DNA from: Trichoplax sp. H2
Lineage: Eukaryota
Reading direction: 5' to 3'
DNA length: 64,000 bases
Assembly (NCBI GenBank): GCA_003344405.1
Contig: NOWV01000128.1
Coordinates: 124,001-188,000, forward strand
Below are positions 4,906 through 56,327 of this stretch, piece after piece. The translations under genes and the position numbers were made by a program. Below the pieces are notes generated by a model. That model did no database searches and was not told where the DNA came from. It saw only the letters and a program-made list of their open reading frames with translations. Every line of letters starts with the position of its first letter. Within the stretch, counting starts at the first letter, position 1.

Positions 4906-6280
4906 ATGGTTTCTTTGCCATTATTAGCCACAATTTACAACTGCTTTATTCACCACAGAGGATTATTCTACATCACATAATACTTACCACAAGTTTACTA
5001 GAAAATTTTCTTTGCGTTAAGAGAAAATAATCTTGATGTTGATGATAACTTCATTAGGTAAGTATACCAAGCCTACTATGGTAATTTATATACTGCTTAT
5101 CTAACGAATACATTATACTTTACACATTCGCTGATTGGAACCTTTATTTTAGAGATTATAATAAAATTCCTAGTAGCTTTTGAAATTAGTAAATAAATAC
5201 GCCGATATCAATTATTTCATTACTTGATTGATAGCTTAATAGTTAATTCTTTAAAATCTTTTTCAGTATAAAATACTGCAATACTTACTGAATTATTTGA
5301 AGAAGAGCTCGGAAAAATGATAAGAAGTAAAGTTGACTGTTACCAAATGTTGCACCTAAATGATTTATTAGTTCTGTCAAAGGTCTTTTCAATAGTAGTT
5401 ATATTCAACACCACTATTACTATTAATAGCGGAACCCTCTAATGGAGATTTAAAAATTGGTAATTTTCTGCAAACTTTGGAAATTTGAGATATAATTCTA
5501 TATAGAACTCCACCACAGCATTTAAGATTAAGACGTTACATGGTGACCACCACTAGTAATGAAAGAAGGCTTACTGTGACAAATAATCCGATATGAATTA
5601 TTCATTTCCGGATATATTCGTAGATGTGGCCCTGTCATGTACTGTAATTCTGCAGAATGAATGTTTTTAGACATAATACCTAAGTGTTTATGGTTTCCAA
5701 TTACATTTACTAAATAAANNNNNNNNNNNNNNNNNNNNGATGGTTTCTTTGCCATTATTAGCCACAATTTACAACTGCTTTATTCACCACAGAGGATTAT
5801 TCTACATCACATAATACTTACCACAAGTTTACTAGAAAATTTTCTTTGCGTTAAGAGAAAATAATCTTGATGTTGATGATAAATTCATTAGGTAAGTATA
5901 CCAAGCCTACTATGGTAATTCATATACTGCTTATCTAACGAATACATTATACTTTACACATTCGCTGATTGGAACCTTTATTTTAGAGATTATAATAAAA
6001 TTCCTAGTAGCTTGGGTATTGGTAATTTTCTGCAAACTTTGGAAATTTGAGATATAATTCTATATAGAACTCCACCACAGCATTTAAGATTAAGGACGTT
6101 ACATGGTGGCCACCACTAGTAATGAAAGAAGGCTTACTGTGACAAATAATCCGATATGAATTATTCATTTCCGGATATATTCGTAGATGTGGCCCTGTCA
6201 TGTACTGTAATTCTGCAGAATGAATGTTTTTAGACATAATACCTAAGTGTTTATGGTTTCCAATTACATTTACTAAATAA
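4906..6280. repeat. Direct duplication (4906-5718 and 5739-6280) across an N gap, with a ~275 bp indel
   Basis: Both copies start GATGGTTTCTTTGCC and end TTTACTAAATAA. The segment ~5180-5455 is absent from copy 2. Confidence 0.95.
5719..5738. other. Assembly gap (20 N)
   Basis: Run of N. Confidence 1.
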
Positions 6281-8582
6281 AAAATACTTGCAAAATCAGT
6301 AAAGGTACAGTAACAAAACGCTCATCTAGAGACTAATGATAAAATAGTGTTACTGTTAATTATTAATAACATGGATGCAAAAATTGATCAGACATCATAA
6401 ATTTTGATAATAAGACTAGATTTAGTATAGCTTAGCATGATACTTAAGGTTCAGCAGAACCTCTTCTGAAGAACTTCAATGACCTCTGTAGAGATAGCGA
6501 TCGTTACTATTTATAATATTTCACTGTCATTATTTTCATGCTAAATCACTGTAAGAGATTATTATCGGTCACATAATTAGCTATCTTGACAGTTTCGTAA
6601 TCCCTAGAGATATCCAAAGTGGAAAATATTGATTATTATTGACATTTTGTTTACAATTGAATCGGTCTTGAGCAACAATCTTCAGATTTGCTTCAAATAG
6701 TATTGATGTTAAAAAAATACTCAAACAGGGATATGATAATCCCACGAGAGAATTGTAGTCAAAAATTCTACTTGTTATAAAGTTAGGTTCAAAGAATATA
6801 ATAATGAATTTAATCTAAGTAATTTTAGGCATGCTTACACATCATGATATATTATGGTCTATAACAGCACTGGCTTGGAGATACGGCAAAAACATTGTAG
6901 TAGGCCTTCAAGTTTAAAAATCCGTAACTTATTTTTAGTTTTAAATTAAACGATACTAGGTTTTCCCTTATTAAAACAGTATTACCGTAGTAGGACAATA
7001 CTTTGAAAGCTAAGCATCCCGCAGACAATCGCCTTCCCCACAAGTCTTTTCTCTGTATCTCGCTGGTCCCAAGGGAATTCTGTTTTTATAGGAGATGGCC
7101 TTCCGATACGACTTGTTTAAGAATGTCCAATCAGTAAAATATATTGCGAAAGCTATAACCACCAATCGTTAGAAAGAGTCAGTCTCACTTATTTGCTACC
7201 ACGACGCAAAATTGGACTCAAGCTTCCTCGCTAAGTTTCAGACCCAGCTTTTGACATTTTCAGGGTAAAACGCTTACAGTTAAATTATTTTATGTAAGTA
7301 CAGTATATCGTAAATGGAAGAATGCAGATTTAGTGCTTTAGGACTTGTATATTGTAATATTAATAGTGGATGAAAAATAATTTAAAACCCGACATTGCTT
7401 TAACTAGTAGCCACTTCGAATACTAACTAAGGAAAAACACTAGATTATTGTAATTTTAACAAAAATTTACGAAAATTACTGAAAGTAATACAGAAAGGTA
7501 CAATAATTGCCTTAGCCAATCAAGACATGAGAAAATGAAGATTAGTCATGATTTAGGAGTAACCAACATTTTAGCATTATATCTTCGGTATTCTCTACAA
7601 TTTCAACTACTTGACTATTGATCTATCGAATTGTAACCCTTTTTTCATGCTGCACAGAGCAATTAGTGAAATCAGACTAAAAAATTGTCTATCTGAAGAA
7701 TTCTAAGTTAAACTAATAGTTATAATTAATCTCCTAGATTTTAAGATTGACTTTATCCTATATTTTCAACACTACTGAATTAATACTAGTCACATTTGAA
7801 CCATAAATTAAGTCTTTCTACAGCATACAGCTTACAACTTAAAAAATGAAACAGAATAGCATCCCAAGTTTGAATCTAGATCAAGCATTTGAATTCACAT
7901 CGGATTCTGTGATAAAGTCTACAACTTCTACCATAATTTCTGATCAACAGTCACTACAGATTTTATCTTAATTGAAGCTAAAATATCGTAGATACTAAAT
8001 AACCTAGCGGTTAAATGACAATTTTATAACATAATGCTTATCAAAAATTATACTATCAAAATATTACTTAATTAGAAGCCAAATAAAGTAGTAGGTTTTA
8101 CCTTATGCTCAATTAATAAACGAAATCTAATAAAATTAAACTTCGGTAAATTAGTTACTTATAAATCCACAGTATCTATTTTAAAGAATATGGTACTTAT
8201 CTACCAGCCAGAGGACTTTTACACAGAGCTACTCGATATCAAATCTTTACACTTAAATCTTAGGAATAAGACAGTGCTCCGTTGATAATACCCTGAAATA
8301 GCTACGCAAGAATTAAGGAACAACTTTACGATTTATACTGTGCTAAGTTCACTGTATTCCTATGGGTGTAACACGTATTTTGATCAGTAGCAAATAGAAA
8401 CGATCCGCTAGTCAATCGTTTACCGCTGCAAATCGTGAAAACGTTCGAATACAATCTTCACTGTGCTGTTTCTTTGTATAGTCTGTCATATCGTTCGTTA
8501 TAATAACGAAGCAACATTTTTATTGCTGCTACTATCGCGGCAAATTCTTATTTCTGTCAAATTCTATTTACCCCTCATAGCA

Positions 8583-10131
8583 ATGAAAACTGAACTTATT
8601 ATAATTGCCACTCTCATTCTGATCGTTGCATCAGCAGCCAGTGAGGGTGAAGAATTTGATGATAAACATATCACAGAATTGCTTGATGAACAAGACCCTT
8701 TTTATTTGGAGGAGATGGATATAATCGATACTGACGCAGACGGAAATGATATGGTACCTGAGGTATTTAAAAACTGTTCACTATACTTGTTTTGTGTATC
8801 CTTTGAACAATTATTTCAAGATAAATTAACTAGCTACTCTTTTCAGTCTAAACTTAGTTTGTAGTCACTCTGAAGTGCGTACTTTGGTACAGAATCTTAA
8901 CCCAAAGTGGAGTGTCTATCGATAACATAAATGATTAAAAAATTTGTCTGTTTACATTATATTGTATCTTTCTATATTCGAAATCATTAAAAGCGAGTTA
9001 GGATCAAGATATTGTTAAATATAAAATTTTTAGAACTGATGCTATTTTAAATTTTCTATTCCTTATTATGCGACATATGGCGCCCATATCGTGCCCGTAA
9101 TTATATCACTTCAGTCGAACTTCGTAAGTATGACATAATCATCTATTTAAATCAATTCTATTTAAAAGTTTTATTTGTGCAATGGTGATACTTTTAATTT
9201 GGTCTAGTATCAAAGACTGATATTATAGCATATATTGTAGAGAAGTTTTACAGTACGAAAATATTACATATACGTATTAAGAACTAATTTTATTATAAAT
9301 TTTTCTTTCATTCATACTCTATGCTGTCATTATAACCTTTCTGATGATGACTTGCTTACAAGGCTGTAAGTCTAACAAAATCATCTACGATTTTAATTAC
9401 TTAACACCTTTACGCGTAAATAAATTTCTTTATTATGATTTCGACATATCTAAATATCATCAAAAATGAAACATATAAATGATAGTGTGTAACGTATACC
9501 TAGCTTTATTACAAGATATGGTTAAATCTTAATTTAAGAACTGATGTTTTTATACAAATTTTATTCGTCTCTTCTATATGACATCAACAATATGGTTTCA
9601 ATCATCATTACAAATGCAGCCTGTAAGTTTAGGATATTTATATACATTTTCAATTTAAGTAGTATTATAAATTAATTTCTTTTATATATCTTGATATCAC
9701 TAATATCATCAAACATCAAATATCTTACTTAAAATGATGGATTATATCATAGCTTAACTTTGTAATAAAATAGTATTTAACATTAAATTTAAGAACTGAT
9801 TTGATTATACAATTTTTTTCTTATATACCCTATGCAATATTGATATCATGAAATTTAATCATCATTTCCATTGTAGCCGGTAAGTTCGTCCTAATCATGT
9901 ATAATTTTCTCTGTATAATCGTTTGATCAAACATTTTATTTCTTATTTCGATTTCACATAATCTCTTAAATCTTTAAAACACTGAAATAATAGTAAGCAT
10001 CATAAATCAGTTTTATTACAAAATAATGTTAAATCTAAATTTAGCAGCAGATTTGTTAATTAGCATAGCAAATTTATAATTCATTTTGTGTACTAACAAT
10101 AGCATCACTATCCTCTACGTAGATCAGATAA
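8583..10131 (+). CDS. Small secreted prepropeptide (signal peptide plus acidic pro-region) with a microexon-encoded C-terminus
   Basis: Exon 1 (8583-8762) encodes MKTELIIIATLILIVASAASEGEEFDDKHITELLDEQDPFYLEEMDIIDTDADGNDMVPE, then GAG|GTATTT. Microexons: 9115-9123 TCGAACTTC, 9363-9365 GCT, 9620-9622 CCT, 9877-9879 CCG, each AG...GTAAGT. The last exon starts at 10123 after TACTAAC. The simplest splice gives ...MVPE-SNF-A-P-P-IR*. The C-terminal frame is uncertain. Confidence 0.7.
8990..10122 (+). repeat. Degenerate ~250 bp tandem repeat of intron-plus-microexon units (about 5 units)
   Basis: Recurring blocks AAATTTAAGAACTGAT, TTATACAAATTT and GTAAGT..AATCAT. Acceptors are spaced 248, 257, 257 and 246 nt apart. 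Confidence 0.85.
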
Positions 10132-13100
10132 TGAATTATCTTGCTTACTTTATAGTATATTGATTTACAGATATGGGTAGAGTTGATGGACATCTGATTT
10201 CTAATTCTTGATAAGCGACTTTCGTCGCGACAAATTCACGGAATTATTTCTAATGTAGCGTGTGTACAATCTAAAGCTAAATCGTGAAATGCAACCATAA
10301 TAATTTTTTCGATTATTTTAAAATGCTTGCGAATTCAAAACAAAAACGTAACAAACTGTATTGGAAAAAGTGGGTAAAGTCCAGCTATAAATCGGTTAGG
10401 AACTATACTGAATGTGTAATGTCTTTAAATTTATGAGTAGGTTTATAAATGTCTTACAGATCAGTATTTACTATACCGCTTGAACTTTGCCAGTATAATC
10501 TTCAGTTTTTTAAAGCAAATTTCATACACGCTATGTCTATATAGGTAGCAAACATGCATTATTTAATTATGAACAATTGTATAAAACCAGATAACATTTT
10601 TGGATAAAATTCTTTAATTTATCGCATACCCGAGACCTATCATATAATGATACGGTTGTACGATTTTTTTCAACAAGACGCATACTAATAACTTCTACTT
10701 CATTAATAATCTGTATCAAATTGATTAGAATGATAAGAAATGAAAAACCCATGCTATGTGGTAAGAAATTTACTTTGCTATATTTTCTATTTATTATCAA
10801 TGAAACTCCAGTACCTTTTCTATCAAAGAGGGTGGCTTATCTTTATTCAGTTTATGAGTACATCAAAATATTTGTAATTAATATTGTTAAACAGATAAAA
10901 AAATTCAGATTTTCTACTATTTTAAAATATAAATTATTCACTGCCGTTGCATACAGTTTTTAATTAAAATGAACTAAAATCAAGAATAACAATTTAAGAG
11001 CTGATGATAGCTGTATCATTGTTAGTAATGCCATTCTTAACGAACTACTTAGGTATGAACAGCAATCTATTTGCCTGCAACAAAGTAATAGATTATTAAA
11101 GAGCGAACGAGATTGGAGATGATAGAAATATGAAGGGCTTCAGAATTGCAAGAGAATCATGACATAAAGCGGGCGGTAGTTAATAGGAAGTAGAAGCATG
11201 CTTTCTCTTACCATATGCTCATAATAAGAATTAGCTAGCATAGATGGATATAAATATAATAGTAGAATTGTAGGCAATCGTAAAAGCGATTAGAATTCAA
11301 TACTTTTAGTAAAGGTTCTAAGTAAAATCACCTCTACGTAGTTTCTGCTTTCATAGATTTTTACTTTCGTGAATGTAAGATTGTGAAGCTAAAATAAAGT
11401 GAACTTTTGAAATAAAGTAATACTGGGTAAAAGTTTGTATTATCTTGTACAAAACAAAATATAATCTACTGGATGCAATTGATCTTTACTATTCTGTCCT
11501 ATGGATTGCGTTTACCTAACTAATAAAATCATAACAAGGACAATTTCTAAATTGGATTTCTACCGGAAGTATTTTTACCAATGTTCGTTTATTTTAAATT
11601 TAAGAGATCTTCTTTCAACTTCATATAAATTTATCACTCCTAATGTTAATCGAATTTATGCTTGCCAAAAGTTCCAATAAGTTGTCGTTACTTTCGGTCT
11701 ATCTTAACCTTAAATTTAACGTAACTATTCTGATTCAGTCTATTGAGCAACAATTCCCTCTTATTTATAATTATTAGCAAAAAATGATATATTCATAATT
11801 GTTATCGTAAGTGCAGCATGTAATTTTGACATAGAATATACAAAAATTCGTAAATTTGGAGTTGGTAAAAATAATGAGCCGTCTTAGTACTACTTATTTA
11901 CTCGGAATAAATATGCACTTTTGAGCTATTAGGTTTTATTATGTTATATTCCTAAAATTAAATCTATTTTAAAGATAAATCATTGCAAAATTCGGCAAGA
12001 GTTAGATGTAACAGCACTTATTGCAGGTGCATCATTTTTGTAACAATCAGTTTTAAGGAAATATCGGTTTGAAATCCTTGAAGCTATTGAATGCTAACTA
12101 AAGTCATCGTAAACACTGTAGCAATAATAATTTAAAATACTGTATCAATTCTAGTTATCACTGGAAAAGGTACAAATATGTTAAATTTTATATCAATTAT
12201 TCTTTCGAACGAAAATATGATACGACAAATCATATGATTGAGATAGCTAAAGGAAAATATTTAAGAGGGAAATTTCTTAATACTTACTATAAACGAAGTT
12301 ATTCGGTTTCGGTAGAGGATTTTAGAAATATCGTTTATTAGTGTCTAGTTTATCTTATCTTAATATGAGTACTTTTTTATCATAATTAAAGTCTCGCTTC
12401 ATAAACAGCACTAAATTTAATAAAGGAGTAAATATAAGACCATACTGTATTAACTCTATTACATAAACAACTATAAAATACATAGCCCGCATGCGCTCTT
12501 TCATTTGCAAGATGCAAGGCTAGCGAACACTAAGCCACTTCTTTACACTTACTAACTTGATTTTAAACGTAAATATTGTGCAATAGCTAAATAACTTACT
12601 AAGTTGACATGCAGCATCTTTATAACCTTATTCATTTGAAAATCTAGGAAATTTCTTTAAAAATAATTTCTCGATGTTACGATCATACCAATCATATCAA
12701 ATTTTGAAAATTCTACCATAATTACTCAAATAGTCTGCAAAGGTATACGCTGAAAAGCTTTCAGTAAGTATGCGTCCAAGATCATTCCATTTATAACGCA
12801 AGCTTTTAGCCGCTGCACGAAAATATTCTAGAGGATCTTTAAAGTAATTCTCAGTAAAAAGATTGACTTAAAGTACCTAATAATTAGAACGCTCTTACAC
12901 ATTGTAACAATCGTACAAAAATACCATCTTTTAATAGCAATCTGCTCAGAAATACTCCAAATTATTTTATCCAAAAATCCCGCGGATGGAAGTGTGAATC
13001 TGTTAATTTTATCTAGCTGTTCTATGCCTAACATGCATCAGTCTAGAACGACACTTAAAATTGATAGTAAGCCTCGATAGCATCATTTTTACTTTAACTT

Positions 13101-15527
13101 AATAAATAAATTATATAGTAAACCAGAATTATTAATAGCCAAATACGTAAGCAATTAAATAATGAAAACAGTATACTTGCTTAAGTTATTATGGCTCGAC
13201 TTTCATTTGAATCAGTACTAATTGTATCGGTCTATTGAGAGCTTTTTGATATGTTGCATATCATAAAATGGCGGCCATAAACATATTTATTTATAAGCAA
13301 TAGCCGATCTTGCAAGTGAAATTCAAGTCTGAATTTCTTCTATCGACTTTACTGTATTTCAAAGTGTTGAATTCTAAATACAAACACACTAATTTCCACT
13401 AATGTTATTAGCTTTTTATACTTGACTGAGTAAACTGCCTTAATCAATCATATACGGGGGTAGCTGTGGACATATTTTGTTATTTCGCATTGTGACCTAG
13501 ATTAGGATCTGGATCTATATAACAGCCCTTAAGGCTTGAGCCATTGTAGTACTACTGGATTTCTATTGCCCAAAGAATGTAGTAGCTAATGTTCGTATTT
13601 ATTTCCATATTATTGATTTCTTGAAGGTTAAAATAAAGCAAGATTGCGGTGAAGCTAATAGTTGTAGTATAATTTTGTAATTGCTTCAACACATCTAGTA
13701 GTAGTTGCATAAGAAATAAGTTAAAAATTATTAAGTAATTGGATTCACGTTGACCGTGAGTTTTAAATAGATAAATCAAGCTTACTACCCCATGTTTGAT
13801 CTCCTTTACGTGCAGCCTGGTGTAAGTACAACTTACGTCAATAGATTTCTTGTGGTTAATCACGATAGGCCTAATGCTGAAAAATCGTCAAAACTAATTG
13901 ATGTTAGGAATGATAGTGTTTGCGGTGCTTATATATGAAATCAGTTAGGTCTATGATCTGATATTGTGACAGATATTAATACTGATATCTATGAGCTCCA
14001 TTCAGCTGTCATAAACTGAAAAGTTATTTTATTTTCATTCAATGTAGATACTGCTGCTAGTTCGCAGACTTACTTCTCTCATCAGTCCTACATTACTGGA
14101 AGATGCTATTGCTAATACTAAGGCATTATGTCTTCCCTCTTGAGGCTATTCCTAACTGCCCTCTTATACCCGCTATAAACTCTCCATTTTCCTTTTGTTA
14201 ATATACGCTACATTAGAACATTCTTGATATCGCTGATTCTGTGCAGACCAAAACTACAGACTTACAGCCACTCCCTTACACTTACAAATACAAATTTAGC
14301 AAGTGCAAGTCGCTATGTCTAGGATACTAACATATGCACCATCGGTGGAGGACGAGATTATATAAACTCGAGCACTAAATTTACTATTCAGTTCCATTTT
14401 AATCATTTTTAGATCCACTTGATCATTATTGCTAGGAGTTTTCTAAAGTGCTTTTTAGTAGATTCTCTTACTAGGATTTATCTCAATAAAGTAAAGTCCT
14501 TAGACCTGTTACCCGTTGGCAGCTTATTTGTGCAGTCGAGAGTTAGTTCAACTATAATAAGTCGCCTAAGCCAGTTGGGGACACGAGTCGTCGTGACAAC
14601 AGCGTTTATGACCCGTTCGAAAAGGTAATTCGTAACAAAATAATTAAAAATTGCTATTTAATTTAGAATCTTTTTAGTCTTCAGATTTCATAAGAGCCTT
14701 TAGCTTACAATAATAATGGCACAGGTACATCTGTAACAATCTCACTGCTACTAAGTTAGGTTCGTAGTTTAAAGATCTTAAGGTCTAAGATACTGAAATA
14801 GATTTCTGTAATAGCGTTGAAACACATAAACTTCAAGATTTGGGCACTGTAGTGTATTTATTTTCACGGTAGTTCTTAGGCATGTTCTTAAATGTAGACA
14901 TTTTGTTACGTTCCGAATATAGATACCTCTACAGTCTATTTCAACTATGCTCAAATATAGCTTGTCATATTTAGTTATTTATAGCAACTACATTCTTTGC
15001 TATTTCCTACAATCATTTACTATCATGTAGGCTGTTTATGGTATATGATGTATCTAATTCTACAATCTTTTTCTCTCACTCTAAAACTATGAATACTGAT
15101 GATTTCTGCTACACATTTATTCAGTTGCACGTTTTAGGGTTAGTATCTACACACATTACTTCACGACAGCTTACATGCTGATCTACCAGTAACTACCACG
15201 CTGTACCTTGTTATTCTCTACAATAAATATCTTTCTTTCTAATATCCCCTCGTATCATTATTGCAAAATGTCTAAGGAGTCCATGTCCGTAGACTCTTCG
15301 TCATCACATGCACAGGCCTATAAGCTGTCAATCCCGGCTCTTAGCACTTGGTATAAGAGTGAATACTGAAAACCTTATGCACCGATTCATCATCAGCCAT
15401 GGCCCTCTAACACGCTTTATTTTAAGCAAATTAATATCGCATTATTTTAAAGGTTACAAAAAATTTATTGAAAGCTTATTACATTTAATAAATATTATTT
15501 GCAATTAATGTTTTAATGACTATAGTT

Positions 15528-20550: not shown

Positions 20551-29721
<9,171 letters not shown>

Positions 29722-31781: not shown

Positions 31782-32565
31782 TAGAAAAACGTCGAATTGG
31801 TCAAGAGAGATACATTCGTATGGCAACAATGGTATTGTTTGGAATAGATGATAGTGGATTCGATAGCATCACGAAAACAGTACTACTTGACGCTTGGAGC
31901 GTACGCCTGTGGATTCTGCGCATTAGTGCACAGGCCTTTGCATTTTTGTAGTCCGTGATAGAAAAACATCGAATTTGTCTATAGGCATACATTCGTATGC
32001 CAACAGTGGTACTATTTGGAATAGATGATAGTGGAGCGCACGCCTGTGGATTCTGCGCATTAGTGCACAGGCCTTTGCATTTTTGTAGTCCGTGATAGAA
32101 AAACATCGAATTTGTCTATAGGCATACATTCGTATGCCAACAGTGGTACCATTTGGAATAGATGATAGTGGATTCGATACGCCTGAGGATTCTGCGCATT
32201 AGTGCACAGGCCTTTGCATTTTTAGTAGTCAATGATAGAAAAACATCGAATTTGTCGATAGGCATACATTCGTATGCCAACAGTGGTACTGTTTGGAATA
32301 GATGATAGTGGATTCGATAGCATCACGAAAACTGTGCTGCTTGGCGCAGGAGCGTACGCCTGAGGATTCTGCGCATTAGTGCACAGGACCTTTGCATTTT
32401 TAGTAGTCCGTAATAGAAAAACATCGAATTTGTCTATAGACATATATTCGTATGCCAACAATGGTACTGTTTGGAATAGATGATAGTAGACTTGATGGCA
32501 CAACGAAGACAGTGCTACTTGACGCTGCAGCATCCGCCTATCGATTCTGCGCATTAGAGCAAAAA
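31782..32565. repeat. 137-177 bp tandem repeat, 5 copies, ending ~85 bp before the PHB ATG
   Basis: Units begin TAGAAAAACATCGAATT and contain GGCATAC-ATTC-GTATGCC and GATTCTGCGCATTAGTGCAC. Confidence 0.95.
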
Positions 32566-32648
32566 CCTGGGCATCACATGGATGTGATGCAACATTTTGA
32601 CATGCGTATCGTCATACTGAATCATACAAGCGACGAAGCTGTGGGAAA

Positions 32649-35122
32649 ATGGCGACGAGATTTTTTAATCGACTTGGTCAATTAGGTGTTGCTCTGGCCA
32701 TTGGTGGTGGAGTGCTTAATTCTGCATTATACAACGGTAATACTCTAATAAGTAACATGTTCGATGATGGATAGAGTAGCTATCGCTTTGGTTGTAGCCT
32801 GTGTTATAGAAAATTCAATCATTGAAAGAGCAGCATACGCGTGCTGTTCCGACAGATAAAACCTCACTTAAACGACGTCTGGCACACAGAATTTTCATCA
32901 CTTTTGTAATAAGCTTATCCATTTCTTGTATTGGTAGTCTCTTTACCAAGTTCTATTAAAGTTTACTGTTATAGTAGTCAAACTATCATTTACTGCGGTT
33001 GTCATTTAGTAGTACGGCACGATCGTTATACAGTATTTGGGGGTATGTAAGCAAAGTCTGTTCAGCAAGCGTAGGATAAATCTTGCTTGCCGACGGTCAT
33101 ACTGTACATCCCTCAAGATGACCAATAACCCACAGTTAAGGCTAACCGTGATAATTTGAACTGCAGTTATACCCGATTGGTGGCGATATGCAGTATTTTC
33201 TGTCACAGATTTTAGCAATGTCCTCAAGTGATGCGATCGGGTAGAACCTTTCTGTATGTTCTTACTGTATATAAAGAGAAAGCAGCTGACATTCGTGCTA
33301 AGTTACCTACCTGCCGAATAGAGAGCGAACTTTGATAATTTAGTATGTATCGGAATGAACTGTTTGACTTTTGCCAATCGAAGAATTCGTAACCTGTAAA
33401 TTAGACCAATAGTACTTTAGTGATTTCTAGCTACTTTAGGATTCTTCCAACGTGATCATGCCTGCTTTTCCAATAGTCCAATTCATTTAAGCATGCAATG
33501 CCGCCGCTGCCTGAGACTATCAAACTATTTGATTGCGCCATTTCCTAGTAGCCATTGTCGGATTAGATAGGAATAGTAATATTTCCATCAAGTAACAACA
33601 TGTACTTCACATACATACCAGTACAGTAGAGACGGTATTCTTAAGATGTTTATGAATAAATGATCGAATGAACTACGCGTAAAACTAGAAGGTTTTACTG
33701 CGTGATAAACTCACTGTCAACTGTTTGTGTTTTTTTCTTGCAGTTGAAGGAGGACACAGAGCTGTAATCTTTGATAGATTTCGTGGAGTTTTACCCAATG
33801 TATCTGGAGAAGGAACACACTTTATCGTTCCATGGTTTCAAAGGCCAATCGTATTTGATATACGTAGTCGTCCTAGGAATGTTCCAGTAACAACTGGCAG
33901 CAAAGGTAAACCAATTTAGACTTCTTTCTTTGACTACAGTACTCTATACTCGCATTATTTATCCCATGATTGAACAATCGATTGACATTGTACTGGATTC
34001 GCTTACGCACAATGTAGATTTGCAAAACGTCAACATCACTATACGTATATTATTTCGACCGGTGGCTAAAACTTTACCAAACATGTATAAGAATCTTGGA
34101 ATTGACTATGATGAAAGAGTTCTACCATCAATCACGAATGAAGTCATGAAAGCCGTAGTGGTAAGTGATCTATCACGAGTAATGAGGTTGTTATTTTCAT
34201 CGCAATGCTGTTTATAATATGGAAGTAAGCAAAGATATTTTTTGATCGTTGTAGGCTCAATACGATGCCAGTGAACTGATCACCCAACGAGAAAATGTAA
34301 GATATATCGTATATTCTTCTTATTGGATGGAAACTACGTAACGTGGTATATTGCAAATATTCAATTTCTAAATAGAATTACCTTTTTGCAGGTATCACAT
34401 ATGATTAGGCAGCAACTAACTGAACGCGCAGCAAGTTTTGGAATACTACTAGACGACATTTCCATCGTAAGTAAAATCAATTCTCAACCATTTTTAAACT
34501 TACAAAGGCTTTGATCCTCTAAGAACGTCATTACTTCGATAGACTCATTTAACATTTGGGCATGAATTCACACATGCTGTCGAAATGAAACAAGTTGGTA
34601 AGTCATGAAACGAATGAAGTGGTTTACAATTTTGACATTTTTTGAAAGTTCTTTATTTTTTGAGACATTGATTTGAATGAGAGATATTTATCTTTCATTT
34701 TTTAGCTCAACAGGAAGCTGAACGCGCACGTTTCGTTGTTGAAAAGGTATGAATGCTTAATCTTCATAACGTAAAGATCATTGAACTCGCCCTTATAAGG
34801 CTGGCTTACATTCAATCCACTTTAGCTTCTTGAAGATCATGTTAGCTTGACTAAAAAGTTAATCAATCAAAACTAATGGAACTTTCCTTTATTCATAACG
34901 TTCTAGGCTGAACAGCAAAAAATGGCTGCTGTTATTACCGCTGAAGGTGATGCTCGTGGTGCTAAATTACTTGCAAGTGCATTCGCTGAAGTAGGTGAAG
35001 GTTTAATTGAATTAAGAAGATTGGAAGCGGCCGAAGAAATTGCACAAGTTTTAGCTCGCTCTCGTAATGTAGCCTATTTACCAAATGGGCAAAATGTTCT
35101 GATGAATTTACCAAACCCATAA
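32649..35122 (+). CDS. PHB1: Prohibitin-1 (8 exons)
   Basis: [45 protein letters not shown]...[22 protein letters not shown]...[14 protein letters not shown]...[14 protein letters not shown]...[15 protein letters not shown]. Confidence 0.97.
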
Positions 35123-38310: not shown

Positions 38311-38595
38311 TTATTTACTTTGGACTTTTTACAGGACTTGATATTGCCGCAGGGGAAATGAATTCGGTTTTTCCCGGTACCTAGACAGTTTCGCGTAATG
38401 TCACTGGATGTCATGCTCAGGTACTCAGAAAGAATAGAGCATGACTTGTTACTACTCTACAGTACAGTAGAATGCATGAGTTCTAGTCCGTAAACGCCAT
38501 CATTTGAGACATTTCAGCACATCATCTGCAATATCATGCAAGAAAATCTGATCGGAAAATGGAAAAAAAACTGACTGCTTGAATAAAACTAAGTT

Positions 38596-39060
38596 ACTGT
38601 ACAGTATAATGTACTGTACAGTACAGTACTACAGTACAGTATACTGTAGAGTTGAGAAGAAAACAAAACCGAGTGCGTACTGTACAGTGTACAGTAGGAG
38701 AACTAGAGAACAGTACAAAAATGCATACTGTACATTGTATAGTACTGTACAGTACTGTACTATAGAGTTGAGAAGAAAACAAAACCGAGTGCGTACTGTA
38801 CTGTACAGTACTACACTGTGTACAGTGTACTGTACTGTACACTGTACAGGGTGTAGAAATTCGATCTAGATTTAAAAAAAACAGATAAAATGATCAAAAC
38901 TTTAAGCAGATATACAGTTTTATGGGTTTTATTCGAAAATAAATCATAAAAATATTCACTGACTTATCTAGAAAGAAATTCTACACCATGTACATTGTAC
39001 AGTAGTAGGACAACTACAGTACAGTACAAAAATGCATACTGTACACTGTACACTGTACAA
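38596..39060. repeat. ACTGTACAGT-rich low-complexity tract with internal duplications
   Basis: Dense TACTGTACAGTA. TAGAGTTGAGAAGAAAACAAAACCGAGTGCGTACTGTAC occurs twice and CAGTACAAAAATGCATACTGTACA occurs twice. Confidence 0.9.
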
Positions 39061-39696: not shown

Positions 39697-42692
39697 ATGG
39701 TAGAACCACCATTGGTACAACGCACCATTTCGCCTACAAGCCAAAACGTAAGGATAATCCAGTTTTATCTTCAATTAAGGAAATACTACTACAGTCACTT
39801 TACAATTAAAGCAGTAATACCACTTTTATAAATGTTTTCTAAAGCGAAAACGATAATGTGCGATCTAGGAATGGAGGATCGTAGCCATGACGTAATTGAA
39901 TTTTTTTTGTAATTTCAAAAGCGTACAAACGATGCGTTTAAAAGCCATAAAATGAATCCTGCAGCTGATCCTCGGCTCATGAGGAGAATTATTGCAGAAG
40001 ATCCAGAATGGTATGACAAATTCACCCTTTTTTTTTACAATTGTACATGGTATACGTAACGTATATGTAGAATCATATAACGAAACGCTTTACTGATACT
40101 GTAGATATCAACCATTGAGTATATTGAACATTAAAATCCTAACCGTCTCAATTTTCTTTGTAGGAGTCTTGCTACTGTCCCACTCTTACGCGAATTGTGT
40201 ATTAAACATATTGTTGGTAATTTCAAAGGTACTAAATTGCAACTTGTTTTCCTTTCAATGAAAGTAATATGATGAAGATGAGTCACTGATTCATATGTTA
40301 CGTATCATGCAGAAAATCCCATCCTAGACGGATTAAATACTAAAGATAGAGCCAAAGTTTTACAGTTACTGCCAACGGATGTTCCGATAAGGTAATGGAC
40401 CATTGTCATAAAGTATACTATCAGTTTTATTCCATAGGCACTTGTTACTCGAAGTAAATTATCTTTATGGCTGTATTTTACGCTATCGGAATAGACTAAT
40501 AGAGAGTTATCTATGAATACTCTAGTATATCGGCTGGTTTAATTGAAGATGAGGGCTACTGGAAACGATGTTGCCAAGCCAGATGGCAGATATGTGATGT
40601 TTCCAAACATGGAGGAGATTGGAAGAGAATGTTTTTCGAAAGAAATTTAGAAGGTAAGTAAACCATAGGTGAATATATACTGCATGTTATCAAATACGCA
40701 ATTTTTTTTAAACATCTCGTTACCATGACCACATTAATAAGTTCATTTTTGATAAATTGTAGATCTCATTGAACATTTCGTTCCTGATTCTACCGATCCA
40801 TCCATGGTAATTCTAAAAATGAATACTACTCGAATACTTTATAAACTATCAATTGAATCATTCCTGTTTAATATTAACAATCAATATGCTAAATTCACAT
40901 CATCACACATCATCTTTATTTATCCAGTTATATGATGTTATGAAATTATCAGCAAACTTTATCAGATGCTTGAATATAAAGCAGCTATTACCACCAGTGA
41001 AAAGTGGTTCCAAATTTGAAGATATTTCCGATACGTAAGTAAACTTGACTCAATACTTTCCAATTTATACAGTGTTATCATAACGAACATTGGCCGCTTT
41101 CTTATTTTTAGAAACAGTGATGCTGGTGAAAGTCCCGATGTCGATCATTTCGATTTTAATGAAATTATTAGTAGACTGACAAATCTCCAAGAGCTTCATG
41201 TAACATATGGGTAAATATTGACTAATTTTAATGACTACTTAGTGTTAAGTGTACTTACATTATTGCCTTTTATGTTCTACATCGTTTATTCAAAGTGTGC
41301 GAGACTGTGGAATGAATTTTGAATGGAATCTCTTCAAATTTACGCCCAAAGACTGTTCTCTGTTAGCTAAAGTAAGCCATAATATAATCAAGGATGTTTC
41401 TAAGGCAGATGGCCAGCAGCGTTATAAATATTATTATATTCCTTTCTTTTATAAATTTTAAAATATTTCATGTTACTCATACATATAAGATTCAAGTTCA
41501 ATCCAACTTTTAAATTTTACCATAAAATTCTCTCTTCTCGTCCATTAATCTACAATAAGTAATATATCTAACAATGTCTTAAGATTTACTATAAATCAGT
41601 AGAGTTCCTTTAAATAACTATATTCTTACATCGTATGAAGCACATTACCGTATATTAAATCTTGAGTACATGTTCAATATACCCGGCTATACAGTACAGT
41701 ACACATTCTAACGCAAATGAATACCATTTATTTCTACTTATTAGGCAGTCAAAAACTGTCGTACCCTGAAAGTACTGCGTTTACATAGAAGTGGTGTTAC
41801 CGATGAATTAGTCAGAGTTCTAATAAGCCATTTACTGGATCATCCTGCATTAATCGCACTCGGTAAGTCAAGTGCGATAGTTTTCATAGTCAATTTATAT
41901 CATATTCTGACAAAATGTCTTCTATTGCTATGCTTTTATAAAGATCTATCTTATAATAAAATAAGTGATAGTGGTGCCAGAGCAATTGGAAAATTTTTAA
42001 ACGGTCATAGTAAGCTTATTCATCTTAACTTATGCGGTAATCAAATTCACGGACCGGGAGCTTCTGCAATTAGCCACGCATTACAAAAGAATGCAACTTT
42101 AAGAACTCTAAATATCCGAGTTAACAGGTTACAGCCTAGATATAATTTTTAAAGTTTATGCTCTTTCTTAACCCTATCATAACTTTTCATTGCAATTGTA
42201 TAGATTAAGTGATGAGGGAGGTCAGGCATTGTGCAAAGCATTAATGAAAAACAAAATTCTTTCCCTTATGGATATCGGAGCAAATGATTTAACAGAACCG
42301 ACAGCAATGGCTTTAGCCAAGGTAATCTTAAGATAATCAATCTAACATAGTTATTCATGTTCAAATATAAATATTTCTTTCGTTATTTATTTCCAAAAGG
42401 TTATTCTCCATAATAAAGTAATTACGTCCATAAATCTGTCTTGCAACAAACTCGGACCGGTAAATCAAATATTTATGTTAGAATTGTATTTAGAATCATG
42501 CTACTTGAACTTATTTTCATTAACGCTTTTATTGGAAAGGATGGGGGAAAAGCACTGCAAGAGAGCATGGAAGAAAATCATAGAATTATCAATATGGATT
42601 TAAGATTGACTGAAGTCGGCCAGGAAAGCGAATACTGCATCAATCAGGTCTTAAAGCGTAATAAAGAAAACCTTATACATAGATTTCATTAA
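39697..42692 (+). CDS. TCTE1: T-complex-associated testis-expressed protein 1 / dynein regulatory complex subunit 5 (LRR protein, 14 exons)
   Basis: MRRIIAEDPEW|SLATVPLLRELCIKHIV, EDEGYWKRCCQARW, GGDWKRMFFERNLE, YGVRDCGMNFEWNLF, LRR repeats and DLRLTEVGQESEYCINQVL. Confidence 0.93.
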
Positions 42693-51800: not shown

Positions 51801-52698
51801 TGTGGTCAAATAAACAATTTGTTTACTGCGCTACCCTAATGTACAGTAGACGGCTTGCTATCCTATTAGTACAGTACATGCTTATTCGACTATTTGCAAT
51901 CAAAGACCGATCTGTCCTCACTATATAGCCCCTTTCGGACTCAATCACTTTACTAGCTCTATGCGTAAAACAGCCTTAGTATATCCTCTACTGGCCTCTT
52001 CAATGAGCATGAAACGTTGTTATTAACATCAGGCGCTTTAACTACAGTATTGTCGTACCGGCAAAGTAGAATCGAATGTACAAGTGTAAATCCTATAACT
52101 TGATTTATCCATAAAATAGCAAAAGCGATAATTATTAAGGGCCATGAATCGTCTAGTAAAGTTGAGCAGCAGCAAGCATCATTGCTATATTTGTTGGTGT
52201 GTTTTAGCTCTTGGCATACTGTATTCCGTCATCATGGCTAGGGGAATGCATTCATCTGTAGGAAATAAGCATTAGCCATCACCTCGCCATAGGCATATTG
52301 TATATTGTAAAGGAATAGCTGATTGATTGCGAGTGCGATCAAAATAGTTCATCAGTCTACTGCTTAAGGCACCGTGTGGCAATAAAATGATTGTCATCAT
52401 AGAGTCATGAATCCATGCTAAAGGCATCATGGCTAGGGAAATGCAACCATCTGTAGGAAATAAGCAGTAGCCATCACCTTGCCATAGGCATATTGTATAT
52501 TGTATAGGAATAGCTGATTGATTGCGAGCGCGATCAAAATAGTCCCTCAGTTTACTGCTTAAAGTATAGTGTGGCAATAAAATGATTGTCATTATACAGT
52601 CATGAATCCATGCTAAACTCCTATGCAGGCATTAAGTGCATTTTCTAATGGATCATCCTAACCTGGTTGGACAAAGCAGCGGAAAGAGTTTCTGCCAT
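48858..52698 (-). CDS. NT5C3: Cytosolic 5'-nucleotidase III-like HAD hydrolase, copy B (12 exons, one GC-AG intron)
   Basis: First exon MAETLSAALSNQ|GT (52698-52663). Motifs VTDYDRTLT, EEKSNQMEIWW, FSAGIGD, LSNMMKF, MGDVEGDLQMADG, IGFLN and YDIVIVGD. Intron positions match copy A. Confidence 0.9.
52230..52615. repeat. Two-copy ~195 bp direct repeat in intron 1 of NT5C3 copy B
   Basis: CATCATGGCTAGGG...CATCTGTAGGAAATAAGCA...GTCATGAATCCATGCTAAA at ~52230 and ~52425. Confidence 0.92.
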
Positions 52699-53573
52699 GA
52701 TTCTTTTTTCTAATTCCTAGCGGCGTAGTTGCTCGTGTAGTCTCAAAGGATCGGCCGGTACTCCAAAGTTTATGACCTTTCCTTGTCCAGTACATTTATG
52801 CCGAACTTGGGAAGTTGCCGCCCACTGCGACTCCGTGAGGCTTTCCATAACACTGTCCGTAGCAGCGTTGTTGACAAAGCAATATTTCATTTTTCCAGGG
52901 CACCTTATATCTTACTGCACATCTTAAAGGCATCGAAATGGAAAGCATCGGATGCATTCATTCTTGAGTAGACCAACCACTTACTTGAACGTATACTGTT
53001 CCCTTCAACTAGTGTAAGTTAGTGGTGATGAGGTCGTTTTTTCAGTATATGATAGCTATAGTAAGAGAAGATTTTCTTTTACATCGGTGAGGTCGAGGTC
53101 ACAAGTTCATCACTGTACCTGCAGTAAAAGTGGGTGCAATACAGTAGGAAATGTTATAATTTGAGAGTGAATGGAAATGAATCTTTGTTAAAGGCATAGA
53201 AATGGACAACATCGTATGATTACGATCATCCGATTGATTTTGTAGCACTGTCGGAGTCAAAATAAGAGCTTGCTTCAGCTTCTGCAAAATTGATGCTGAT
53301 AGGTACACGTTGTAACTGTAGTAAGAGAAGATTTTCTAGGCCTTGCTCGCACCCAATACTTGACAAGTCGCTGACTGTATCTTTCATGTCCATTTGTGAT
53401 ACGTTTTTTATGATAATATAATGTAATTTTTGCAATCAAGCCATCCAATTGGATAGGGATCGATCCTTTCCTCCTCAAGCTTTGCTTATTGATCGAGGTT
53501 TACTTCAGGATTTCCATCAACAGACTGCAAGCTTCTCAGTCACGTGATCATCAGTCCGTGAAGAGAGAACAAT

Positions 53574-54470
53574 GAGTGTCATCTGAAACGCATCCGAGAC
53601 GCACCTTGGGAATGAAGCCATAGGGTTGTCCACTTGACCACGGATCGTCCGTCTTTCCGTAACCCGAGGTGATGATATCATCGAGGCGACAGTCTGCAGT
53701 TGACATCACTGATGTCAACACCAGTCTGTTCTTTCCATCCGTCCGTAAAGTAAGCCATCGAGCAGGCATAGGAGTGTCATCCGAGATGCATCTGAGACGC
53801 ACCTTGGGAATGAAGCCATAGCGTAGTAGGCTAAGGTCTCAATCTAGGCCACTATCAGTTGTCCACGTGACCACAGATCGTCCATCTTTCCGTAGCCCGA
53901 GGTGACGATGTTATCGAGTCAACAGTCTGTAGTTGACATCACTGATGTCAACACCAGTCTGTTCTTCCATCCGTCCGTAGAGTAAGCTATCGAGCAGGCA
54001 TAGAAGTGTCATCCGAGACGCATCTGAGCCGCACCTTGGGAATGAAGCCATAGCGTAGTAGGCTAAGGTCTCAATCTAGGCGACTACCAGTTGTCCACGT
54101 GACCACAGATCGTCCGTCTTTCCGTAGCCCGAGGTGATGATATCATCGAGTCGACAGTCTGTAGTTGACATTGCTGATGTCAACACCAGTCTGTTCTTTC
54201 CATCCGTCCGTAAAGTAAGCCATCGAGCAGGCATAGGAGTGAGTGTTCATCCGAGACGCATCTGAGACGCACCTTGGGAATGAAGCCTTAAAAGCGTAGT
54301 AGGCTAAGGTCTAGGCGACTACCAGTTGTCCACGTGACCACAGATCGTCCGTCTTTCCGTAACCCGAGGTGATGATGTCATCGAGTCAACAGTCTGGAAA
54401 TGACATCACTGATGTCAACACCAGTCCGTTCTTTCCATCCGTCCGTAGAGTAAGCCACCGAGCAGGCATA
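53574..54470. repeat. ~235 bp GC-richer, palindrome-rich tandem repeat, 4 copies
   Basis: Units start near 53574, 53772, 54004 and 54241. They share GCACCTTGGGAATGAAGCC, CCACGTGACC and GTTGACATCACTGATGTCAAC. Confidence 0.96.
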
Positions 54471-54960: not shown

Positions 54961-56327
54961 TAGCCATTCCCTGGTAAACCGATTGCCTTCTTGTCCATTC
55001 ATTTACTCTTGATAGAAGTAATCGACTGACTATCCTCTTGCTTGACAAGGCATATCCTGGTTGTTTGGTGATCGATTGGATGCGACGATAATTAATCGAC
55101 TACTTGTTCTATTAGACCATTGGATACTAAGAAACAAGTAAGTAGGGATAGATGGTAGAGAAGAACGAGATCGTATCATACAGTAGAATAAGCTGCACAA
55201 CTACAATCATACCAATAGCAATGAGGTTACTGCATGCCTGTACAGTAGAATAGGCGAGTCGAGTTGGGAGGCGGCCAGCAGTTGTCCAACATCCAAGTTG
55301 TTGAATGCTTGTTGTATCAATCTGCCATCCAATGGGAATGCCAATCCCATCAGTGGCTAGCAATTTCATTATTGATCATACTTTACATAAGATACCACTC
55401 GTAGCTTGATAGAGTGCAGTGCAGTTCATCAACCACCGATGCATGTACTTTCGTTTTGCGTAGGGTAATGCTTGAAATACAACGCTCCTCTGAAACTCTC
55501 ATCAACTCGATACTCTGATTAACTAGACGTATGCCAAGTTTCTTCCACTGTAAACGTGATAAAAATGATTATGGATTCCTTGTTCAGTTGGAATCCACGC
55601 ACAAAGCTGATAGTCTGGTCGTATTTACCCTACATTCCTCTGAATAATGAATCCACTCAATAATCTTGCTAAATTAAATCCACGCCTAAGCTGATACACA
55701 CGTCTAGCTTATCCAACATTCCTTTCAATAATCTACTCAGCAATCTTCCGAACCTAGTAGTAGGACGAGGCGTTGCTAGCATATGAGTAGTTTCGTTGTC
55801 AATGAAATGCTAACCTGCTACACTAGGTTTTACGCCATAGTTTTCTTCATGATTATTAACTTCATAGCCGTACTAATAGACACGTACGTAAATATGGGTA
55901 ACTAGCTCCATATCGACACAGTTCACAATCCTTTTTTGATATCCAAAGACGCCCTCCATCTTCGTACAGTGCTGAATAGATCATCCTACTTTACGATCAA
56001 GTCAATCATTCGTTAATCAATAAATCTTAGTAACACACATGTAGGTATTGTTAGTTCTCTTCTGGCTTTCAATCAAACTACCGTTGGATACATTGCCTTC
56101 GATTAAATTCTTCCTAATTATAATTATCATCGACACCGCAATCGGGCAAAGAGGCTACGCATAACACCCATATTTGTATACTTCATTATACGCGTACTTA
56201 ACTCAATAATTAATCTTACCAACTTTGACGCATTTAGAGTCGAATCCTTTTGCATTTTCGTAAACAATTACTGTTTCTTCAAATCCATCATAGGCTGATC
56301 AATACGGTGGTAACAACCAACAACAAT

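Follow-up and report, generated by a model that had tools for sequence, protein, structure and literature searches.

Trichoplax sp. H2 carries, on the forward (+) strand of a 64,000-nucleotide (nt) stretch of contig NOWV01000128.1 (the window, to which all positions below refer), a small gene in which an exon of 9 nt is followed by three exons of a single codon each. These four micro-exons succeed one another at intervals of about 250 base pairs (bp), and three sequencing runs from three studies show them in messenger RNA (mRNA). We regard the locus as a real, expressed and so far unannotated gene, which encodes a 78-residue secreted pre-pro-protein and which acquired its four micro-exons by tandem duplication, and we put the probability of this reading at roughly 85%. 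Why should so small a gene deserve attention? One-codon exons stand at the physical limit of the spliceosome, and here are three of them in a row, all included in the contigs seen. Their homologous introns have drifted by about 30% with the donor hexamer, an internal motif and an AG-free spacer held fixed, which amounts to a natural mutagenesis experiment on the signals of one-codon exons. The array also suggests a simple route to the gain of a single residue, namely the duplication of an intron with a codon inside it. Furthermore, it extends micro-exon gene architecture, hitherto tied to parasitic flatworms and plant-feeding aphids, to a free-living non-bilaterian animal. Finally, Trichoplax is a model animal that has been studied extensively, and this secreted-protein gene is not represented in the protein sets searched; inventories of the placozoan secretome and peptides have therefore probably overlooked similar genes.

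Four micro-exons in mRNA

The evidence from RNA consists of assembled contigs, not raw reads. With exon 1 as the query, 24 public runs were retrieved, 19 of them with at least part of the stretch, and seven named studies are represented. Four runs (X1, X2, X4 and X5) were aligned over 7000-13000, and the parts of this interval left uncovered in X2, X4 and X5 do not count as evidence. In X2 (record 9, 705 nt, depth 4.33) and in X4 (record 10, 475 nt, depth 92.7), position 8762, the last of exon 1, is joined to 10370/71 with 17 letters in between, and in X5 (record 13, 498 nt, from a library recorded as RNA-Seq) 18 loose letters follow 8762. The inserted letters are the four micro-exons of the window in order, with one mismatch per run: 9117 G>A in X2 and X5, which is synonymous (Ser), and 9364 C>G in X4, which changes Ala to Gly. 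The aligner had placed the final G on 10370; as 10369-10370 is the AG of an acceptor, this G is assigned to micro-exon 4, and the next exon begins at 10371. Further downstream, the X2 and X4 contigs also splice 10394/10729 and 10760/11053, both of them GT..AG. Seven canonical GT-AG introns are absent from these two contigs, which can therefore hardly be anything other than complementary DNA (cDNA).

A preliminary description of the locus, made from the letters alone, had placed exon 1 and four AG/tiny exon/GTAAGT sites in this region, and all of them, like the motifs that it listed, lie where it had put them. It had further predicted that the four tiny exons would be found in this order in mRNA, which the contigs of X2, X4 and X5 bear out: the cDNA contigs contain the micro-exons, and the transcripts run well past 9.1 kilobases (kb), reaching 11218-11328.

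Could the spliced contigs have come from another locus, from a contaminant or from an assembly chimera, with the AG/NNN/GTAAGT sites standing in the window by chance? Two of the runs, X2 and X4, are labelled RNA by guess, and the contigs of X2 and X5 have depths below 5. These points weigh against our own reading as well, as does the fact that contigs do not fix expression levels, rare isoforms or transcript ends. However, the same 17-18 letters, bar one mismatch each, recur in three runs from three different studies, the flanks match the window at 99-100% identity, all other joints are GT..AG, and the window contains no second copy of exon 1. We consider such an artefact to be extremely improbable.

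The two other kinds of material deserve a word. X5 also has an unspliced contig over 9201-9742, at a depth equal to that of its exon contig, and this run therefore contains pre-mRNA or DNA. X1, with cover in each of the 30 bins, behaves like DNA. Its contigs end at 9363 and 9620, the first bases of micro-exons 2 and 3, and these ends, together with the G at 9364 in X4, hint at polymorphism of the one-codon exons under a single species label.

The preliminary description also proposed that skipping of micro-exons tunes the mature peptide residue by residue, and that the transcript ends with ATCAGATAA at 10123-10131, giving the eight-residue C-terminal peptide SNFAPPIR. Since the four micro-exons are all multiples of 3, any combination of them would be in frame, and 12 distinct tails are possible; one micro-exon codon differs between runs (Ala/Gly), and flatworm micro-exon genes have been described as working in this manner (PMC5825161; 10.1101/2020.04.08.031872). 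Against this, no exon skipping was seen in contigs, which may drop rare variants: both of those that span the array hold all four micro-exons in full-length strings of 17 letters, the loose end of the third has all 18 letters and stops just behind them, and the sole joint leaving 8762 goes to 10370/71. The acceptor at 10122/10123 is used by no contig, which refutes ATCAGATAA as the last exon of the main form; micro-exon 4 is joined instead to 10371-10394 and then to 10729-10760. The peptide SNFAPPIR is thus wrong from its seventh residue onwards, the actual tail being 18 residues long. Homology to the repeated unit also stops at ~10057, short of ATCAGATAA, and the site at 10123 is not at a demonstrably homologous position. 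Tuning by skipping finds no support in these contigs, which could hide rare isoforms, and we judge this explanation improbable.

Tandem units and their splice signals

The ~250-bp units align with a mean column identity of 64%. Compared pairwise against shuffled sequences, units 2-5 give z-scores (z) of 3.6-16.3, units 3 and 4 being the closest at 71% identity. A profile of introns 2-4 recovers the last 112 nt of intron 1 (9001-9112, E-value (E) 5e-5) as well as the first 178 nt of intron 5 (9880-10057, E 1.3e-7), and finds no further copy of the unit in 64 kb at E <0.1. The homologous block runs from ~9001 to ~10057, which is roughly four periods, with the tiny exon in the middle of each segment and unique intron sequence on either flank. 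Tandem Repeats Finder (minimum score 30) does not report the array, because its copies are too diverged. Judging from its sequence, the array is a local tandem duplication and not a dispersed element. Counting both strands, the window has six occurrences of AGNNNGTAAGT, where 1.72 would be expected from shuffles (of 100 shuffles, one reaches six); three of the six belong to the array, at a spacing of 257 nt.

The homologous ~250-bp units fit the growth by duplication of an intron-plus-codon unit that was put forward in the preliminary description. A segment of ~250 bp with a codon-sized exon in its middle would have been duplicated in tandem to about four copies, each duplication adding one residue at the homologous codon (Phe, Ala, Pro and Pro), and units 3 and 4, which carry the two prolines, would be the youngest pair. 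Relative to the acceptors of the other units, that of micro-exon 1 is shifted 6 nt upstream in the alignment, hence the 9-nt exon in unit 1. The AG-free zone of this unit has 6 nt of insertions in the alignment, by which the 75-nt spacing described below is kept.

Two other candidates were considered. The interval 9880-10131 could be seen as a decayed fifth unit that has lost its donor and gained AGs, an idea weakened by the profile homology, which ends near 10057; the three AGs within 10053-10120 may sit in unique ancestral intron sequence. Other clusters of the type AG-N(1-15)-GTRAGT occur in the window; one of them, at 13850-14282 (-), shows by eye neither periodic homologous units nor an open frame, and was dropped as chance.

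Through this drift the splice signals were kept, as had been claimed for the donors from the start: 119 of the 300 columns (40%) are invariant among introns 2-4, and the donor hexamers are invariant. All four micro-exons are followed by GTAAGT, against none of the 11 other donors examined. These are the other four of the gene itself (GTAAAG, GTATTT, GTTAGG and GTAAGA) and seven resolved ones from the neighbouring ABCC gene, for which 13 junctions were tried and six unresolved ones excluded; they were taken from an old partial gene model (P0001), and its junctions are approximate. The seven resolved ABCC introns measure 46-322 nt, have no GTAAGT donor, and show AG-free zones of 9-63 nt.

Before the acceptors of the micro-exons, the AG-free zones extend over 79, 79, 79 and 81 nt, and their 318 nt contain no AG at all, where the remainder of these introns would predict 14.8. 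Given the composition of each zone, the probability of finding no AG is 0.04-0.13, and AG-to-AG gaps of at least 70 nt account for 1.9% of the gaps in the window. Each zone has at its upstream edge AGAACTGAT (in unit 2, AGAACTAAT), the block that is best conserved inside the unit; its branch-like A is separated from the acceptor by 75, 75, 75 and 77 nt, respectively.

How might an exon of 3 nt be recognised by the spliceosome? Such an exon would not be bridgeable by exon definition, nor could two spliceosomes flank it simultaneously. Because the exons are too small for exon definition, splice sites would be paired across the introns of ~240-350 nt (intron definition), which would be excised in succession. 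Each step would set the end of the growing exon, lengthened by one codon, before a perfect GTAAGT, much like a recursive splicing that leaves one codon behind. We thus infer that splicing is sequential and recursive-like and uses a distal branch point. A candidate for this distal branch site with an AG exclusion zone is the conserved AGAACTGAT-like motif, a role to which we would give even odds. A branch 75-77 nt back would keep U2 clear of the U1-bound donor 3 nt past the acceptor, and it would also explain the AG-free zone. The concept of a distal branch point with an AG exclusion zone comes from PMC1431707. In plants, a model of intron definition with stepwise removal was put forward for Arabidopsis APC11 and its 1-nt exon (PMC4674806), and strongly conserved GTRAGT donors are described for the 1-nt exons of VPS55 (PMC8831610).

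The array might also have no function in itself: unequal crossing-over would have copied a piece of intron with its codon inside a tolerant linker, and the strong splice signals would be no more than the gene requires to survive. The added residues are indeed small and linker-like (Ala, Pro and Pro), they lie between the acidic region and the tail of the protein, and one of them varies between Ala and Gly. Moreover, no skipping was seen, the array is the only one in 64 kb, and such a neutral course is compatible with the structural part of our explanation. It is less easily reconciled with four perfect donors, four AG-free zones and a 75-77-nt spacing that were all kept through ~30% divergence. 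This preservation shows purifying selection on inclusion, so that the residues matter, or at any rate the frame. We see neutral copying as a real possibility, whose chances fall a little short of even.

Protein product and comparison with known systems

With the exons joined by their coordinates, the reading frame is open across all of them to the TGA at 10741-10743, giving 78 amino acids (aa). This stop lies 17 nt ahead of the last junction, and by the usual 50-55-nt rule for nonsense-mediated decay the mRNA should escape this fate. In the product, a signal peptide is followed by a strongly acidic region of 42 residues and a basic tail of 18. Its N-terminus consists of MKTE, then 12 hydrophobic residues and an ASA/A motif. 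Residues 1-18 are hydrophobic (grand average of hydropathy 1.99), and the Kyte-Doolittle 9-residue mean rises to 3.5 across residues 5-16; this N-terminus is likely a signal peptide, and the protein likely secreted. Residues 19-60 count 17 D/E for a single K/R, and both translation and hydropathy agree with the hydrophobic N-terminus and very acidic region noted at first sight in exon 1. The last 18 residues include 4 K and 1 D (isoelectric point 9.8, net charge ~+3). The four micro-exons supply codons 61-66, where the acidic region gives way to the tail, and the protein has no cysteines. Our guess is a secreted peptide, or else a granule protein, from a placozoan cell of the gland or peptidergic type.

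In neuropeptide-type precursors, basic cleavage sites flank the mature peptide, of which there are frequently several copies and which frequently ends in a Gly that serves for amidation. The signal peptide, acidic stretch, short C-terminal peptide and terminal Lys-Lys of the present protein recall placozoan and cnidarian peptide precursors as well as antimicrobial ones of the arminin type, and for this architecture the likeness drawn in the preliminary description holds. It fails for the processing marks: the protein has no internal dibasic site, no K/R pair from the acidic region to the tail, only one copy of the peptide and thus no repeats, and no amidation Gly before the terminal KK. In addition, the tail carries only about +3, and no sequence relation to such precursors was found.

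When exon 1 is used to search 1.84e9 representative proteins, the sole match at E up to 0.001 is TrispH2_008524 (P0087), a 66-aa hypothetical protein of Trichoplax sp. H2 with a similar layout of signal and acidic region. The two are 42% identical over 48 residues (E 4.2e-4), with 23 invariant columns and the common elements EEFD, DE..P and D.ID; the same search shows no similarity to flatworm micro-exon gene families or to any protein outside Trichoplax. Of the paralogues that a tblastn with exon 1 had been hoped to reveal, none is present in the window with either exon 1 or P0087 as the query, and it is the protein search that provides one relative. Among proteins of 33-105 aa, exon 1 had no match in a word-based search, and a profile of exon 1 and P0087 brought no third member among proteins of 33-116 aa, retrieving only P0087 itself. 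Pfam has 0 families for the product or for P0087. Our best guess is that the gene and TrispH2_008524 form a small placozoan-specific family. No protein equal to the product was found in the collections searched, which may not cover newer placozoan annotations; the gene appears to be unannotated in them, as would be expected of one that gene finders miss. Neither the accession nor the locus tag of TrispH2_008524 was found in any paper among open full texts without supplements.

Besides the RNA labels and contig depths discussed above, several points count against our interpretation of the locus. Because the units descend from one ancestor, the donor and AG-free statistics do not count as four independent tests. 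Exon 1 and exon 6 also have long AG-free zones ahead of them, of 67 and 92 nt, so that such zones may be a gene-wide trait, branch-like motifs are also found 18 nt upstream of the acceptor in introns 2 and 4, and RNAalifold found no conserved RNA fold in the four motif-to-donor segments (0 pairs). The runs are near-identical to the window and give no deep comparison of conservation. As for the protein, only hydropathy and the -3/-1 rule speak for a signal peptide, the acidic region passes into the tail without a cleavage site, and the match to TrispH2_008524 is borderline in its E-value and partly driven by composition.

Under an operational rule, micro-exon genes (MEGs) have seven exons or more, of which half or more are micro-exons (<70 nt, with a length that is a multiple of 3), four or more of these standing in succession (10.1101/2020.04.08.031872). 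The gene described here is a MEG by this rule: it has eight exons, of which five are micro-exons (9, 3, 3, 3 and 24 nt), all consecutive from 9115 to 10394. Like the MEGs of flatworms (Schistosoma, Echinococcus, Hymenolepis), it begins with a signal-peptide exon followed by a run of symmetric micro-exons, is missed by gene finders and aligners, and would have grown by exon duplication. The MEGs of schistosomes encode proteins that are secreted or exposed on membranes, and the present product is likewise predicted to be secreted, from its hydropathy and its ASA/A motif. MEG exons measure 3-81 bp (PMC10526429), and in schistosomes ~80% of the coding region is contained in short symmetric exons of 6-36 bp (PMC5825161), whereas the micro-exons of the present gene contribute 42 of 237 coding nt, or 18%. 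It differs from the flatworm genes also by its three successive 3-nt exons, by introns that are short homologous units where theirs are long, by the absence of skipping in the contigs seen, and by its free-living non-bilaterian host.

The bicycle/megacycle effectors of aphids are likewise secreted proteins with many very small internal exons of uniform phase. Bicycle genes evolve fast, their relatives being recognised by gene structure and not by sequence; they have ~17 exons on average, almost all of phase 2, and encode CYC motifs (PMC9168663). In contrast, the Trichoplax gene has eight exons, in phase 0, with one-codon exons among them and no cysteines in its product.

Micro-exons of 1-3 nt in APC11, VPS55, RPS24, hth and Ncam resemble the present ones in being too small for exon definition. 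The VPS55 exon of Arabidopsis measures 1 nt and that of Drosophila hth 3 bp. Isolated 3-nt exons are described in mouse Ncam and Drosophila TnT (PMC8042270), and RPS24 has three micro-exons in a row, of 3, 18 and 22 bp (PMC12207440). The tiny exons of APC11, VPS55, hth and Ncam are isolated in conserved genes, whereas here paralogous 3-nt exons follow in series after one of 9 nt. A further likeness is with the ratchet points of Drosophila, where an acceptor stands almost directly before a consensus donor and the 5' splice site is restored at each step (10.1101/006163), just as a donor would be in place again after each splicing step in the array. Ratchet points, however, leave nothing in the mRNA and divide very long introns, whereas here 3 nt stay and the introns are of ~250 nt. 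Nor are these zero-nucleotide exons: 3 or 9 nt lie between AG and GTAAGT and are kept in the mRNA.

In open papers without their supplements, no array of successive 3-nt exons was found, and no nuclear micro-exon of placozoans either, the 1-bp exon of mitochondrial cox1 being the only one; cell-atlas supplements, outside this scope, could hold a gene model. It is conceivable, though in our opinion rather unlikely, that placozoans evolved MEGs of their own, independently of flatworms and aphids, characterised by codon-wise lengthening of a secreted protein through tandem duplication of an intron unit, by units that each bring a perfect donor, a distal branch site and an AG-free spacer, by constitutive recursive-like inclusion and by the longest known run of single-codon exons. 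TrispH2_008524 may belong to the same kind of family, with different unit numbers. If such an independent placozoan kind does exist, it would offer a natural minimal system for the pairing of splice sites independently of exons.

Gene structure and surroundings

The transcript has eight exons in the form of the X2 contig and nine with the upstream exon of X4, and two 5' forms are observed: X4 has a spliced exon ending at 5326, whereas X2 and X5 run unspliced back to 8408 and 8283, respectively. The X4 contig has 53 unaligned letters 5' of 8581, and an 18-mer taken from them matches the window at 5302-5319 only. Thirty of these letters, compared by eye, equal 5297-5326 and are followed by GTAAAG in the window, and a catAG acceptor stands at 8579-8580, ahead of exon 1. 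The upstream exon supplies an ATG at 5318-5320, in frame with the main ATG, which would add four N-terminal residues. The proximal leader is covered without a joint by X5 record 13 (8283-8762) and X2 record 9 (8408-8762), contains one upstream ATG at 8362, and is either an alternative start or a retained 5' intron. All features are collected in Table 1.

Table 1. Exons, introns and candidate branch motifs of the micro-exon gene, in window positions
Feature	Positions	Strand	Remarks
Alternative upstream 5' exon, 3' end	5297..5326	+	Donor GTAAAG at 5327; spliced to 8581; contig reaches ~5274
Proximal leader	8283..8582	+	Unbroken with exon 1 in two runs (X5, X2)
Exon 1, coding part	8583..8762	+	ATG at 8583, 60 codons, ends GAG then GTATTT; spliced contigs of X2, X4, X5
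Intron 1	8763..9114	+	352 nt; weak donor GTATTT; last ~112 nt unit-homologous
Motif AGAACTGAT, intron 1	9032..9040	+	Edge of 79-nt AG-free zone; candidate branch A 9039, 75 nt before acceptor
Micro-exon 1	9115..9123	+	9 nt, Ser-Asn-Phe; preceded by cttcAG, donor GTAAGT; joints in X2, X4, loose end in X5
Intron 2	9124..9362	+	239 nt, unit copy
Motif AGAACTAAT, intron 2	9280..9288	+	Candidate branch A 9287, 75 nt before acceptor
Micro-exon 2	9363..9365	+	3 nt, GCT = Ala; preceded by acaAG, donor GTAAGT; GGT (Gly) in run X4
Intron 3	9366..9619	+	254 nt, unit copy
Motif AGAACTGAT, intron 3	9537..9545	+	Candidate branch A 9544, 75 nt before acceptor
Micro-exon 3	9620..9622	+	3 nt, CCT = Pro; preceded by tgcAG, donor GTAAGT; spliced contigs
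Intron 4	9623..9876	+	254 nt, unit copy closest to intron 3 (71% identity, z 16)
Motif AGAACTGAT, intron 4	9792..9800	+	Candidate branch A 9799, 77 nt before acceptor
Micro-exon 4	9877..9879	+	3 nt, CCG = Pro; preceded by tgtAG, donor GTAAGT; spliced contigs
Intron 5	9880..10370	+	491 nt; first ~178 nt unit-homologous, remainder unique; contains unused 10123-10131
Exon 6	10371..10394	+	24 nt, 8 codons (WVKSSYKS), donor GTTAGG; joints in X2, X4
Exon 7	10729..10760	+	32 nt, four codons (NDKK, 10729-10740), TGA 10741-10743, donor GTAAGA; joints in X2, X4
Exon 8, 3' untranslated region	11053..11328	+	Contigs end at 11218-11328

Within the 5' intron that is spliced out in the X4 form, an assembly gap of ~21 N occupies 5719-5739. 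The sequence at 5741-5800 repeats 4906-4960, ~800 nt upstream (gatggtttctttgccattattagcc...), and looks like a duplicated gap flank. Beyond the 3' end of the gene, at 12226-12627, the summed depth of X1 is 6-10x higher (844 and 555 versus ~80-140), loose ends are numerous, and one joint, 12371-12472, is non-canonical; this interval is probably a multi-copy repeat or a mobile element.

The window is AT-rich, with 28-44% G+C in 2-kb steps. The neighbouring gene at ~21000-28000 (-) encodes an ABC transporter of the ABCC/MRP type, one exon of which is 98% identical to T. adhaerens TRIADDRAFT_30988, an identity that assigns the window to T. adhaerens or to a placozoan very close to it. Long stop-free frames with repeated peptide-like strings (SSIPNSTTVGIRMYAYRQIRCF, CTVYSTVQY) are seen at 31800-32600 (-), 38550-38900 (both strands) and 52270-53840 (-), and these look like tandem or satellite-type repeats in the GC-richer part, not like genes. 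Exon-like frames were recognised by eye at 33891-34217 (+), prohibitin/band-7-like, at 41745-42692 (+), leucine-rich-repeat-like, and at 56238-62123 (+), ankyrin-repeat-like, all of them ordinary neighbours.

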